From: Escherichia phage BP32
Direction: 5' to 3' (one strand)
Sequence record: OR906198.1
DNA length: 64,000 nucleotides
Positions 29,289-55,439 of the stretch are shown in pieces. The notes below the pieces were generated by a model that was not told where the DNA came from, did no database searches, and worked only from the letters and a program-made list of their open reading frames with translations. The first letter of the stretch is position 1. Each line of letters starts with the position of its first letter. The position numbers and the translations under genes are program-made.

Positions 29289-29903
29289 ATGTTTAAAGTT
29301 AATACTTTTTATAAAATGAATTTTAAAAATGGGGATATTACTCCACGCCTTAAAAACATGTTCTCATATGACCTTATCGAGCCTTTTGAAGTTTTAGAAG
29401 TTACTGATGCCGGCTCGGTTTGTGAAATTAGAACTTCTGAAGGTAAAATTTATCAGGCAGGTGTTGGTAAATTCAGTAATTGTTTTACTTTAATATTCTC
29501 GACCGATTTAGATGAGCATTTTATTGAATGTCCTAACCCTAAGGTCCACGAAGTTCCACATCAAGAAACTAAGAAAAATGGCCCGCACGAATATACGAAG
29601 GTTGAAACTCCTCACGGCGTGATGTGGCGTCATAACTCTCCTTTTGGAAGTAAAGGAACATTTGCTCAACCGTCTAAACCGTATGATGATGAAAAATACA
29701 TCGTCGTCTTTTTATCTGAACAGGGTACTCAAGACCGTGGATGCCAACGAAGTGGTTTACTAAGTGAACTTGAAGCTCATAACCAAGCACGTGAATTCGT
29801 TGAGAAAAATCCTGGTTCTGAAGCTCTAGTCATGAAAGCAATTACTCAATATATCACTGCTCAACCTGTTGTTCATCCGGTAGAAATTAATTTCGTTAAG
29901 TAG
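29289..29903 (+). CDS. Hypothetical protein (204 aa)
   Basis: ORF with GAGGAAA Shine-Dalgarno. Confidence 0.6.
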   Translation: MFKVNTFYKMNFKNGDITPRLKNMFSYDLIEPFEVLEVTDAGSVCEIRTSEGKIYQAGVGKFSNCFTLIFSTDLDEHFIECPNPKVHEVPHQETKKNGPHEYTKVETPHGVMWRHNSPFGSKGTFAQPSKPYDDEKYIVVFLSEQGTQDRGCQRSGLLSELEAHNQAREFVEKNPGSEALVMKAITQYITAQPVVHPVEINFVK

Positions 29904-29933
29904 TTTACATCCAAGGACGGATTAGAGTATAAT
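29904..29933 (+). promoter_or_regulatory. T4-early-like promoter (GTTTAC ... TATAAT)
   Basis: GTTTAC 29904-29909, TATAAT 29928-29933, 18 nt spacer. Confidence 0.5.
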
Positions 29934-29957
29934 GATTTCTTTAGTAAGTGGAAAAAT

Positions 29958-30155
29958 ATGAAATTTTTAATAGCACAAACAGTCCAATTAAAAGGTGTTG
30001 GAATTCCTGGGATGATTTTTAAAGTTCTCCATGAATTTAAAACCGCTGCTGGAATTATCAATGAAGCGTATGCTGTTCAATGGGTTGATGGGACTTCTGA
30101 CATACGTATGGGTAAAGAGCTATCTCCTATTAAAGGGTTGAAACATGTTGAATAA
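29958..30155 (+). CDS. Hypothetical protein (65 aa)
   Basis: ORF downstream of early promoter. Confidence 0.45.
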   Translation: MKFLIAQTVQLKGVGIPGMIFKVLHEFKTAAGIINEAYAVQWVDGTSDIRMGKELSPIKGLKHVE

Positions 30156-30357
30156 ATTAATCCAGAAATTGTTAGGCACGGAAATGGTTGAAGTTACTTA
30201 TCGTGTGACTGACTGCTCGCCTATTCATCCACAGGATGAACCGTTTATCAAGACAATTAAAATGCTTAAAAATGACGGTGGTTTATCTATTGAAGACCGT
30301 CTGCCTAGTTACGGTCATTGGGCCGATGTTGAAATTATAAGTGTTAAAGATGTCTGA
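30145..30357 (+). CDS. Hypothetical protein (70 aa)
   Basis: Overlapping start/stop arrangement. Confidence 0.45.
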   Translation: MLNKLIQKLLGTEMVEVTYRVTDCSPIHPQDEPFIKTIKMLKNDGGLSIEDRLPSYGHWADVEIISVKDV

Positions 30358-30808
30358 ATTAGAAATAAGAAGCAATTTCAAATGGCCGTCATGTGCATTA
30401 AGTAACTTTGCTCAATGGCCTTTTGTTATGGATGGTATTCAATTCGGAGGTCTTGAAGGATTTCTCCAAGGATGTAAGGTGAAAAATGTTGAACAACAAA
30501 AACGTATATTTGGGTTGTCTGGATTGGCTGCACAGCAAGCCGGAAGGTCTTATGCAAGAGCTCAGGACCGTGGGACTCTCTTCTGGTTAGGAGTTCCATT
30601 TTCAAGATACTCTGAAGCGTGGAAAGAATTATACACAAATGCATATTTTGAAGCAGCGATCCAAAACAGGGGTTTTCGTGATGCATTACAAGCCTCGAAA
30701 GGAAAAGTTTTGAAGCACAGCATGGCTAGTGGTCTAACAAAAGATGATACAATACTAACCGAAGCTGAATTTATTGATGTGTTAAACCTATTAAGAGACT
30801 CTCTATGA
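30341..30808 (+). CDS. NADAR-like (YbiA/DUF1768-like) domain protein
   Basis: ALSNFAQWPFVMDGIQFGGLEGFLQGCK resembles the YbiA core DFSNFAAWPIKVDGKTWPTSEHYFQAQKF as I recall it. Confidence 0.55.
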   Translation: MLKMSELEIRSNFKWPSCALSNFAQWPFVMDGIQFGGLEGFLQGCKVKNVEQQKRIFGLSGLAAQQAGRSYARAQDRGTLFWLGVPFSRYSEAWKELYTNAYFEAAIQNRGFRDALQASKGKVLKHSMASGLTKDDTILTEAEFIDVLNLLRDSL

Positions 30809-31659
30809 AGCCAACTATTTTGACTGATATTGATGGAGTATGTTTAAGCTGGCAATCAGGCCTTCCTTATTTTGCTCAGAAATATAATCTTCCATTAGAA
30901 CATATTTTAAAAATGATCCAAGATGAGAAATTTATTTCTCCAGGTAAACTCTTTAATTGTGACGAAGAACTTGGCGTCAAGTTAATTGAAAAATACAATC
31001 GTTCAGATTTTATTCGTTACTTGTCTCCGTATAAAGATGCCCTGTGTGTAATTAACAAATTAAAAGAAGATTATAATTTTGTAGCTGTTACAGCATTGGG
31101 TGATTCTATTGATGCTCTATTAAATCGTCAATTTAATTTGAATGCTCTTTTTCCTGGTGCCTTTTCAGAAGTAATGATGTGTGGTCATGATTCTTCAAAA
31201 GAAGAGTTGTTCAAAAAGGCAAAAGAGAAATATAACGTAATTTGTTATATTGACGATCTCGCTCATCACTGCGATCATGCGAGTGAAATATTAAATGTTC
31301 CTGTTTATTGGATGGCTCGAGGAGAACGTGACAATATTCCAAAAACTGCTCAGCGAGTTTATACATGGAATGATGTAGAAAATAAGCTTTTTTCGCCGAA
31401 GGAAAATAAAGAAAGTTTTGATAGTGAAAAAGCTATAAAAGATTTAATTGAGAAGATGGTTAAAAACGATTCTTTTCCTTGGAACACTACCTGGAGAACG
31501 CCTGGATTAAATCCTTATAATCCATATTATCTATATTATCTATATCATCCATATCAGACACATCCGTTTCAGACATGGAACTATATTAAACCTGGTGGCA
31601 TAGAGTATTTGTATAATAGACCTACTAGTGGTGATAATATTTTTCAAGGAGCATTCTAA
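30805..31659 (+). CDS. HAD-superfamily phosphatase/nucleotidase-like protein with Tyr/Pro-rich C-terminal tail
   Basis: N-terminal ILTDIDGV (HAD motif I DxDG); C-terminal NPYNPYYLYYLYHPYQTHPFQ. Confidence 0.6.
   Translation: MKPTILTDIDGVCLSWQSGLPYFAQKYNLPLEHILKMIQDEKFISPGKLFNCDEELGVKLIEKYNRSDFIRYLSPYKDALCVINKLKEDYNFVAVTALGDSIDALLNRQFNLNALFPGAFSEVMMCGHDSSKEELFKKAKEKYNVICYIDDLAHHCDHASEILNVPVYWMARGERDNIPKTAQRVYTWNDVENKLFSPKENKESFDSEKAIKDLIEKMVKNDSFPWNTTWRTPGLNPYNPYYLYYLYHPYQTHPFQTWNYIKPGGIEYLYNRPTSGDNIFQGAF
31522..31557 (+). repeat. Four imperfect 9 bp tandem repeats inside the HAD-like gene
   Basis: ccatattat / ctatattat / ctatatcat / ccatatcag, encoding the YYLYYLYHPYQ tail. Confidence 0.6.
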
Positions 31660-31835
31660 TGTTTGTTGTTCATACTATTTATGAAAATGAAGGTAATACT
31701 ACACGTGATTACGGTCACGTAAATCAATTTTTTAGATGCAATCCAGAATTCCGTGCTCAAAAAGACGAACGAATTTTTAAAAAAATGTGTAGAACAAGGT
31801 TTCATTTACGTCAAGCACTGGATGCAAGGAAATAA
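31659..31835 (+). CDS. Small ORF (58 aa), below the ORF-track length cut-off
   Basis: ATG overlaps upstream TAA (TAATG); translation MFVVHTIYENEGNTTRDYGHVNQFFRCNPEFRAQKDERIFKKMCRTRFHLRQALDARK. Confidence 0.35.
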   Translation: MFVVHTIYENEGNTTRDYGHVNQFFRCNPEFRAQKDERIFKKMCRTRFHLRQALDARK

Positions 31836-31925
31836 AGTTAGAACTACATATCATAAGTCTTTGCCTGAGCTTAATGATGAATTGATTTATAATAGAGATG
31901 TAAATCAAACTCTGAAGGATGAACA

Positions 31926-33386
31926 ATGATTCTTAAAATTCTGAATGAAATAGCATCTATTGGATCAACTAAGCAGAAGCAAGCAATTCTTGAAAAGAAT
32001 AAAGATAATGAATTGCTTAAACGAGTATATCGTCTGACTTATTCTCGTGGGTTACAGTATTATATTAAGAAATGGCCTAAACCTGGTATTGCTACCCAGA
32101 GTTTTGGAATGCTGACCATTACCGATATGCTTGACTTCATTGAATTCACGTTAGCTACTCGGAAATTGACTGGAAATGCAGCAATTGAGGAATTAACTGG
32201 ATATATCACTGATGGTAAAAAGGATGATGTTGAAGTTTTGCGTCGAGTGATGATGCGAGACCTTGAATGCGGTGCTTCAGTATCTATTGCAAACAAAGTT
32301 TGGCCAGGTTTAATTCCTGAACAACCTCAAATGCTGGCAAGTTCTTATGATGAAAAAGGCATTAGTAAGAATATCAAGTTTCCAGCCTTTGCGCAATTAA
32401 AAGCAGATGGAGCTCGGTGTTTTGCTGAAGTCCGAGGCGATGAATTAGATGATGTTCGTCTTTTATCACGAGCTGGTAATGAATATCTAGGATTAGATCT
32501 TCTTAAGGAAGAGTTAATCAAAATGACTGCTGAAGCCCGCCAGATTCATCCAGAAGGTGTGTTAATTGATGGCGAATTGGTATACCATGAGCAAGTTGAA
32601 AAAGAGCCAGAAGGCCTAGATTTTCTTTTTGATGCTCCTGAAATCAGTAAAGCTAAAGAATTCGCCGAAGTAGCTGAATCACGTACTGCTTCTAATGGAA
32701 TCGCTAATAAATCTTTAAAGGGAACTATTTCAGAAAAAGAAGCTCAATGCATGAAGTTTCAGGTCTGGGATTATGTCCCGTTGGTAGAAATATACTGTCT
32801 TCCGGCGTTTCGTTTAAAATATGATGTACGTTTTTCTAAACTAGAACAAATGGCATCAGGATATGATAAAGTAATTTTAATTGAAAACCAGGTAGTAAAT
32901 AACCTAGATGAAGCTAAGGTAATTTATAAAAAGTATATTGACCAAGGTCTTGAAGGTATTATTCTCAAAAATACCGATGGATTGTGGGAAAATGCTCGTT
33001 CAAAAAATCTCTATAAATTTAAAGAAGTAATTGATGTTGATTTAAAAATTGTAGGAATTTATCCTCACCGTAAAGACCCTACTAAAGCAGGTGGATTTAT
33101 TCTTGAATCAGAGTGTGGAAAAATTAAAGTAAATGCAGGTTCAGGCTTAAAAGATAAAGCCGGTGTAAAATCACATGAACTTGACCGTACTCGCATTATG
33201 GAAAACCAAAATTATTATATTGGAAAAATTCTAGAGTGCGAATGCAACGGTTGGTTAAAATCTGATGGTCGCACTGATTACGTTAAATTATTTCTTCCAA
33301 TTGCGATTCGTTTACGTGAAGATAAAACTAAAGCTAATACATTCGAGGATGTATTTGGTGATTTTCATGAGGTAACTGGTCTATGA
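31926..33386 (+). CDS. 30: ATP-dependent DNA ligase gp30
   Basis: MILKILNEIASIGSTKQKQAILEKNKDNELLKRVYRLTYSRGLQYYIKKWPKPG matches T4 DNA ligase; 486 aa. Confidence 0.96.
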   Translation: MILKILNEIASIGSTKQKQAILEKNKDNELLKRVYRLTYSRGLQYYIKKWPKPGIATQSFGMLTITDMLDFIEFTLATRKLTGNAAIEELTGYITDGKKDDVEVLRRVMMRDLECGASVSIANKVWPGLIPEQPQMLASSYDEKGISKNIKFPAFAQLKADGARCFAEVRGDELDDVRLLSRAGNEYLGLDLLKEELIKMTAEARQIHPEGVLIDGELVYHEQVEKEPEGLDFLFDAPEISKAKEFAEVAESRTASNGIANKSLKGTISEKEAQCMKFQVWDYVPLVEIYCLPAFRLKYDVRFSKLEQMASGYDKVILIENQVVNNLDEAKVIYKKYIDQGLEGIILKNTDGLWENARSKNLYKFKEVIDVDLKIVGIYPHRKDPTKAGGFILESECGKIKVNAGSGLKDKAGVKSHELDRTRIMENQNYYIGKILECECNGWLKSDGRTDYVKLFLPIAIRLREDKTKANTFEDVFGDFHEVTGL

Positions 33387-54629: not shown

Positions 54630-55439
54630 TTAGAAACGAGATGCGACTTTCGCATATACACTTACAATATCTTCTGCACCAGGTGCAGCTTTATCTTCTA
54701 CAGCTTCAGTGACGAAATTCAGTCCGGCTGCTTCAGTATCAGGAGTATTTATACCCTCAGTAATAGTGCTTTCATCTTTATTAGACTTCTTCACCATTTC
54801 TACGATGGCACTCAATTTATTTGAGAATTCATCTGAATAATCCATACCTTCGACCAGAGCAGAGACTTTTTCTTTTTGAGACTCAGTCAGATCTTTAGTA
54901 CTTTCGCTCAATGCCACTTCACGCTGCACATAATTGATATATGCGTCGCGCATATTGAGTTCTTCGAACAGACGAGCTGATTCTTCTTTATGTTCTTGCA
55001 GCTCTTCTTCCATTTCAGCCACAACATCAACTGATTCTTCTGGAACAACAACGTTGTGTTCAACAAAGAGCTCTTTTAATCCACCAAGCATGGATTCAAA
55101 CAGTTCGGCTTTGATGCCTTTATCAACTGCTAATTTATTTTCAGCGAGCCATTCTTTCGCAAGATGGTCAATGAATTTAGAAGCTTGCTCAGCGATTTTC
55201 TTCTCAGCTTTTTCTTCGGCTTCTTCTTTATTTTTTTCTACTTCTTCTTCTGCTTTTTCAGCAATTTTAGCGATATGAGATTCAGCTAATTTAACGGCGT
55301 GCTGCTTGACGGTAGCTTCGAATACAGTGCCGAAAGTTTCTTTTGCTTCCGGAGAAATATTAACTGATTCGAAAATACTATCAAGAGCAACGGAAGCATC
55401 AATTTTTTGCGCTTCAGCAATCAGTTGTTCTTTAAGCAT
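54630..55439 (-). CDS. 22: Prohead core scaffold protein gp22
   Basis: 269 aa Glu/Lys/Ala-rich helical protein, same as T4 gp22. Confidence 0.9.
   Translation of the reverse strand: MLKEQLIAEAQKIDASVALDSIFESVNISPEAKETFGTVFEATVKQHAVKLAESHIAKIAEKAEEEVEKNKEEAEEKAEKKIAEQASKFIDHLAKEWLAENKLAVDKGIKAELFESMLGGLKELFVEHNVVVPEESVDVVAEMEEELQEHKEESARLFEELNMRDAYINYVQREVALSESTKDLTESQKEKVSALVEGMDYSDEFSNKLSAIVEMVKKSNKDESTITEGINTPDTEAAGLNFVTEAVEDKAAPGAEDIVSVYAKVASRF

Follow-up and report, generated by a model that had tools for sequence, protein, structure and literature searches.

Comparison of sequences confirms that the gene 30.2 homologue of Escherichia phage BP32 contains a real coding tandem repeat with copy-number polymorphism (VNTR), and the alleles found among its relatives are probably the product of slippage in a length-tolerant, predicted disordered linker of gp30.2, with the reading frame kept by selection on a motif encoded downstream. 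The gene occupies positions 30805-31659 on the plus strand of the window, i.e. the whole 64,000-nucleotide stretch of record OR906198.1 that was analysed, and encodes 284 amino acids plus a stop codon, as given by the open reading frame (ORF) list and by a match to PHROG 420 (E 1.4e-92, residues 1-275). The stop codon, TAA, shares its last base with the ATG that opens gene 30.1 (TAATG, 31657-31661). The window derives from a T4-type phage (Tequatrovirus) in which the gene order 30.3 - 30.2 - 30.1 - ligase is as in T4, gene 30.2 being preceded by a Phage_30_3 (PF08010) gene at 30341-30808 and followed by a DUF3045 gene and then by DNA ligase at 31926-33386. The encoded protein (WRQ07207.1 of Escherichia phage BP32, recorded on one contig only) is 97% identical at the amino acid level to T4 gp30.2, 'gp30.2' being the T4 annotation at the homologous place, and the closest record in the phage collection is that of vB_EcoM_IME340 (98.4% identity across the gene). 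Similarity and synteny together place the protein in the T4 gp30.2 family.

The initial annotation of this DNA described four imperfect 9-bp repeats at 31522-31557, encoding a Tyr/Pro-rich stretch near the C-terminus. An in-frame 9-bp repeat is indeed present, as is apparent from the ORF list, from TRF and from the codon register, and the tail is rich in both residues (10 Tyr and 8 Pro in the last 60 amino acids). The interval 31522-31557 is in frame and encodes PYYLYYLYHPYQ (residues 240-251, from the sequence as read and the ORF list), but the array really starts 12 nt upstream and is better delimited as 31510-31554 on the plus strand. The units are tandem and 9 bp long, as described; the codon register gives five of them rather than four (residues 236-250), and the fourth of the units originally listed overruns the end of the array by 3 nt, taking in one non-repeat codon. 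Read in register along this variable tract, the five units are AATCCTTAT, AATCCATAT, TATCTATAT, TATCTATAT and CATCCATAT, which encode NPY, NPY, YLY, YLY and HPY, respectively; they are AT-rich (consensus ATCYATATY), and perfect period-9 identity within the array extends over 31524-31545. TRF applied to the window reports the array as 31511-31554 (period 9, 4.9 copies, 85% matches, score 53), and a repeat search finds four overlapping copies at 9-nt spacing. A nested 15-bp tandem duplication, encoding HPYQT HPFQT, is present at 31546-31575 on the same strand, and is reported by TRF (period 15, 2.0 copies, 86% matches) in agreement with the repeat search.

Taken alone, this repeat is only moderately beyond chance. 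When the 64-kb window was shuffled 100 times with its dinucleotides preserved, no shuffle produced an array with at least four copies, a period of at least 6 and a score of at least 53; some TRF hit with a score of at least 53 nevertheless arose in 22 of the same 100 shuffles, so that the TRF score by itself is only modest evidence. What is decisive, and makes the repeat meaningful, is that on alignment the length differences among relatives map exactly to the tract.

Megablast matched gene 30.2 to 648 phage records and the tail query to 438. Approximately 25 Tequatrovirus gene 30.2 sequences were fetched and their tails translated, the variable segment being defined as that lying between WRTPG(L/F) and QTHPFQTW. 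This segment reads NPYNHPY in Nami, NPYNPYHPY in T4, NPYNLYHPY in F13076, NPYNHLYHPY in GEP001, NPYHPYYTHPY in ECp13, NPYNPYYLYHPY in IME340 and FL33, NPYNLYHPYHPY in T6, NPYNHLYHLYHPY in CJY920, NPYNHLYHPYHPY in SP1, NPYNPYYLYYLYHPY in the window and NPYNPYYTHPYNPYYTHPY in ESh18 and Shfl2. The genes inspected (about 25) thus hold at least 11 peptide alleles, in keeping with the earlier suggestion that the repeat could create length variants; copy number varies extensively among related phages at exactly this site, and repeat number is clearly not identical in all relatives. The tract comprises 7 residues in Nami, 9 in T4, 12 in IME340, FL33 and T6, 15 in the window and 19 in ESh18. Across 30 full-length records sampled at even intervals, gene 30.2 measured 837, 840, 843, 846, 855, 861 or 864 nt, and equivalents of the 220-nt tail query in other records measured 196, 199, 202, 205, 208, 211, 214, 229 or 235 nt; at least 10 length classes are represented among the records sampled, and these differ only by multiples of 3. 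The indels are confined to the tail: gap columns in an alignment of 19 Tequatrovirus genes all fall at window positions 31520-31625, with none in the first 715 nt, and across 30341-33160 the only indels relative to IME340 and T4 are those of the tract, a 1-nt change in an A-run of gene 30.1 and, relative to T4, one 3-nt indel in the ligase gene.

The window and IME340 or FL33 are exactly one perfect 9-bp unit apart, the window having one more YLY and the tails being otherwise identical, and further pairs separated by one 9-bp unit are CJY920/GEP001, SP1/GEP001 and T6/F13076. These one-unit differences are found at different positions in the array, which indicates repeated, independent events of gain or loss. 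Outside the tail, 18 synonymous substitutions also separate the window from FL33 within the core (234 codons), and the combination of synonymous core differences with a tail identical bar one repeat unit indicates recombination breakpoints within gene 30.2; recombination between alleles could spread them rather than create them.

The window's own tail was matched at 100% in none of the 438 phage records, and an exact pattern search of viral_contigs did not find its two-YLY allele. A search of viral_contigs for related loci returned only 10, five of them with a readable Tequatrovirus tail, and the allele statistics were for this reason drawn mainly from the GenBank phage collection. Scanning for the tract as a variable-gap pattern identified two metagenome contigs, whose allele lengths were among those already known, and did not match any bacterial genome contig. 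The occurrence of the two-YLY allele in no other record might be taken to mean that the extra YLY unit is an artefact of assembly or sequencing in this one genome record, particularly as the same record contains a +1 frameshift in an A-run that splits gene 30.1, the kind of change typical of homopolymer sequencing errors. We nevertheless consider an artefact very unlikely, as a clean, in-frame and perfect 9-bp duplication is atypical of read or assembly errors and equivalent one-unit differences recur in many phages that were sequenced independently; even if the window allele were wrong, moreover, the locus would still be polymorphic.

Sequence downstream of the repeat is under purifying selection. 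Values of dN/dS are 0.02-0.08 for the core and, downstream of the repeat, 0.03 between the window and T4, whose tails are of one type, and 0.2-0.5 when the two Tequatrovirus tail haplotypes, GIEYLYNRPT and DAGYFNR(L/F)T, are compared with each other. The low values downstream of the repeat indicate that the tail is translated and constrained. The data do not support positive selection on the tail, dN/dS being below 1.

These data also bear on the proposal that the repeat acts as a signal at the level of DNA, whether as promoter, protein-binding array or site of recombination for gene 30.1 or the ligase gene, the coding of a peptide being incidental, which we judge extremely improbable. The units do hold TATAAT-like hexamers, and a sigma-70-like TGGAGA-18-TATAAT arrangement (31492-31521) touches the array; however, a scan for promoters and terminators around the tract did not rise above chance (9 promoter-like matches against 8.1 +/- 2.9 expected), no T4 late-promoter TATAAATA occurs in the tract, and copy number varies freely, unlike that of a spaced binding array. 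All but one of the indels preserve the frame and this, together with purifying selection downstream, argues for constraint at the level of the protein and against a DNA signal.

Slippage within a length-tolerant linker, the reading that we consider probable, would account for these observations as follows. From the pattern of alleles we infer that the AT-rich 9-bp units may misalign in replication or recombination, leading to the gain or loss of whole units; misalignment of T4 DNA at short direct repeats, with consequent gain or loss, is well established from classical work on rII. Because each unit corresponds to three codons the frame would be preserved, and rare out-of-frame events would be purged, since the downstream GIEYLxNxPT motif and the DNIFQGAF terminus would be needed. 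The tract itself would form a flexible linker from a HAD-type core to a C-terminal short motif, and the length of this linker would be only loosely constrained, such that many alleles could coexist among near-identical phages. Near-neutrality of copy number is, in this scheme, an assumption.

The core to which the tail is attached was assigned by the initial annotation to the HAD phosphatases on account of an N-terminal motif, and this assignment holds. Residues 1-195 (30805-31389, plus strand) are described by conserved motifs, an AF2 model and Foldseek as a HAD-type phosphatase core with a helical cap. In an alignment of 79 homologues, obtained from a search of 5.8 billion proteins, motif I is D8-x-D10-G-V (D8-I-D10-G-V12, the DIDGV of residues 8-12), motif II is T96, motif III is K132 and motif IV is D150-D151; D8, D10, K132, D150 and D151 are invariant in all 79, G11 is nearly so, and T96 is found in at least 90%. 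The predicted fold gives further backing. The AF2 model built from the 79-homologue alignment has pLDDT values above 90 over residues 1-190, and Foldseek comparison with the PDB gave 110 matches at E <= 1e-3, with E values down to 3e-8, of which all 50 matches listed have the HAD fold (hydrolases, dehalogenases, deoxyribonucleotidases and proteins designed on such scaffolds). Scans of gp30.2 returned no Pfam family at E <= 0.1 and no NCBIfam family at E <= 1, which leaves the motifs and the predicted fold as the basis for HAD membership; a search of PDB sequences with the single gp30.2 sequence produced a chance hit only. A HAD-superfamily phosphatase-like core is thus supported by motifs and predicted fold.

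Assignment as a nucleotidase is, on the evidence of the models, only a lead. The best target TM-scores (0.63-0.70) and the lowest rmsd values (4.3-5.2 Å) were obtained with the 5'(3')-deoxyribonucleotidases 2jao, 2i7d, 4yih, 1q92 and 3bwv, but the scores of generic HAD hydrolases were as good. A profile of the 79 homologues gave a marginal match to 2jao among PDB sequences (E 0.055, residues 6-103 only), and database annotators name some relatives 'deoxyribonucleotidase' or 'putative phosphatase'. The 5'(3')-deoxyribonucleotidases (cdN/mdN; 2jao, 2i7d, 1q92 and 4yih, with the bacterial 3bwv) have in common with gp30.2 the DxDxV motif, a Rossmann-like core and a helical cap, whereas sequence identity is 13-20% and they are without the 90-amino-acid Pro/Tyr-rich C-terminal extension of gp30.2.

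Leading from core to tail is a predicted amphipathic helix (residues 207-220, 31423-31464, plus strand), in which AF2 gives the block 211-220 a pLDDT of approximately 84. The remaining landmarks, all on the same strand, are a W-R-T-P-G anchor just upstream of the repeat (residues 230-234, 31492-31506), W230 of which is nearly invariant in tail-bearing relatives; the C-terminal motif GIEYLYNRPT (31597-31626), conserved in tail-bearing relatives; and the terminal peptide DNIFQGAF (31633-31656), conserved in the Tequatrovirus genes inspected and reading DNILQGAF in UFV11. Of the 45 long tails, 16 have a pattern G-(T/I)-G-I-E-Y-L-x-x-Q-P-T near the C-terminus; they come from distant Straboviridae, Klebsiella and Citrobacter phages among them, and within this subgroup E267 is invariant, and Y268, P273 and T274 nearly so. 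The GIEYL-type motif may be a docking peptide. Other subgroups of gp30.2 end in L-R-A-Y-Y or Y-V-L-L-N-K-like motifs. Elsewhere in the window, a search of the other ORFs for GIEYL, WRTPG and FQGAF motifs found only GNEYL in the ligase, and LFPGAF was found in the gp30.2 core; neither is meaningful.

The repeat sits between the W-x-x-P-G anchor and the C-terminal motif, in the most variable stretch of the protein; family-wide, tails cannot be aligned except at these two elements. Beyond the core, the tails of the 79 homologues range from 0 to 135 amino acids, 34 being shorter than 40 residues and 45 at least that long. The claim that an aromatic tail is unusual on a nucleotidase-like enzyme therefore needs softening, as a tail is not unusual within the protein's own family. 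In the 37 homologues with tails of at least 60 amino acids, 14% of the final 50 residues are proline, against 4.3% in the core. AF2 assigns residues 225-284 pLDDT values below 55 with two alignments, and below 50 at residues 242-265, which include most of the repeat, low pLDDT serving here only as a proxy for disorder. Docking of the tail on the core is also unsupported, as AF2 with the 19 tail-bearing relatives only gave a worse model with tail pLDDT below 50.

Diversity in the tail raises the question of whether copy number is subject to adaptive tuning. Under this reading the Tyr/Pro units would act as 'stickers' or spacers governing how far the C-terminal docking motif reaches, or how avidly it binds, a host or phage partner, and the alleles would be selected by host background. 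Nucleotide diversity is 0.08-0.10 in the tail and approximately 0.035 in the core, i.e. two to three times greater in the tail; the two tail haplotypes (GIEYLYNRPT and DAGYFNR(L/F)T) are divergent; Pro-rich tails recur throughout the family despite their unconserved sequence; and the neighbouring gene 30.3 encodes an anti-DarTG1 factor (PMC11825919), a counter-defence setting. We consider such tuning unlikely, however, as dN/dS over the alignable tail is 0.03-0.48 with no positive selection detectable, 34 of the 79 homologues have little or no tail, and AF2 leaves the tail undocked on the core; there is, in addition, no known partner for the tail, nor any mention of gp30.2 in the literature searched. 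An elaboration of the same idea, in which the tail is a fast-evolving Tyr/Pro 'sticker' tether whose GIEYLxNxPT motif and terminal Phe dock the phosphatase on a host or phage partner or compartment, is in our estimation likewise unlikely. The target might then be e.g. the replication or dNTP-synthesis machinery, or something related to defence given the adjacent anti-DarT1 gene adfN, and gain or loss of 9-bp units would retune valence or reach as hosts change. Under the slippage reading, the tail would serve as a linker bearing a docking motif.

The tract may usefully be compared with known systems of repeat variation. Coding minisatellites or VNTRs are in-frame tandem repeats, found e.g. in microbial surface and adhesin genes. 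In common with these, the gp30.2 tract has short head-to-tail units, a length that is a multiple of 3 and a preserved frame, together with a copy number that varies between very close relatives and a location in a low-complexity, probably unstructured segment. Unlike them, it consists of a very short, degenerate array with 3-5 units of 9 bp, its copy number is without a linked phenotype, and its host protein is not a surface protein but an intracellular, early-gene product of a lytic phage with predicted enzyme activity. With phase-variable contingency loci the tract would share repeat-mediated slippage as the source of variation, as surmised here for gp30.2; identity with such a locus was nevertheless rejected, all sampled length classes differing by multiples of 3, and on/off frameshifting does not occur at the tract because the 9-bp unit is itself a multiple of 3. 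Coding minisatellites that lie in frame within disordered linkers are a familiar phenomenon, and what is described here is ordinary length polymorphism of that sort, not a new kind of system.

Closer still to the phage itself, the classical genetics of T4 rII involves deletions and duplications between short direct repeats, and slippage of the Streisinger type. The rII events and the gp30.2 tract belong to the same phage group and replication machinery, and in both rII and the gp30.2 tail events are bounded by short direct repeats; the rII data are laboratory mutational spectra, whereas gene 30.2 presents standing natural polymorphism. Events so bounded include two larger duplications in the tail. 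In Shigella phage CT01, an in-frame 84-bp duplication doubles 28 residues including the GIEYLYNRP motif; in phage KMB42, a duplication in the same tail is out of frame, and the protein is truncated at 253 amino acids. KMB42 provides the one disrupted copy of gene 30.2 among the approximately 25 inspected, disrupted by this larger out-of-frame duplication and not by a change in unit number.

No paper mentioning gp30.2 was found in the literature searched; 30.2 appears in the adfN paper as a map label only (PMC11825919), and the main text of the HIDEN-SEQ preprint makes no mention of gp30.2. The polymorphism and the domain map of gp30.2 hence appear to be undescribed. The tract constitutes a small natural length marker in T4-type phages that may help in typing strains and in following slippage by the T4 replisome. 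For gp30.2, a widely conserved early protein, the map of a HAD phosphatase-like core, a helix, a variable and predicted disordered linker and a C-terminal motif can guide the choice of construct boundaries and of residues to mutate (D8/D10; Y268/T274). Were linker length to prove subject to host-dependent selection, the locus would represent repeat-driven tuning of an intracellular phage effector.

Several further observations concern the neighbouring genes and the remainder of the window. [quoted passage not shown] Its homologue in the window (30341-30808) is a 155-amino-acid ORF with a listed GTG start, and several related records annotate a shorter, 381-nt version. Upstream of gene 30.3, alignment of 29289-30340 with T4 and IME340 genes 30.4-30.7 is broken by indels throughout and makes little sense, in contrast to the near-colinearity of 30341-33160; the ORFs in this upstream interval differ (204, 65 and 70 amino acids), and the similarity of their layout to the annotation of phage CAU_ECP01 suggests a mosaic replacement. 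On the other side of gene 30.2, gene 30.1 (DUF3045, 31659-31929) is split into two overlapping 58-amino-acid ORFs because the window has A7 at 31779-31785 where IME340, T4 and FL33 have A6, a change that may reflect either an error in sequencing the homopolymer or a genuine frameshift by slippage. Of the 498 phage records that matched, 12 were listed; one of these, that of vB_EcoM-RPN226, shows a match of the same query length with two CDS under it. Far from this region, a CTT-rich tract at 55188-55259 (period 3/12; TRF 17 copies, 67% matches) lies inside a 269-amino-acid ORF on the minus strand (54630-55439), which we take to be the gp22 prohead scaffold protein; the tract, which codes for a segment rich in Glu and Lys, has the appearance of ordinary low complexity.
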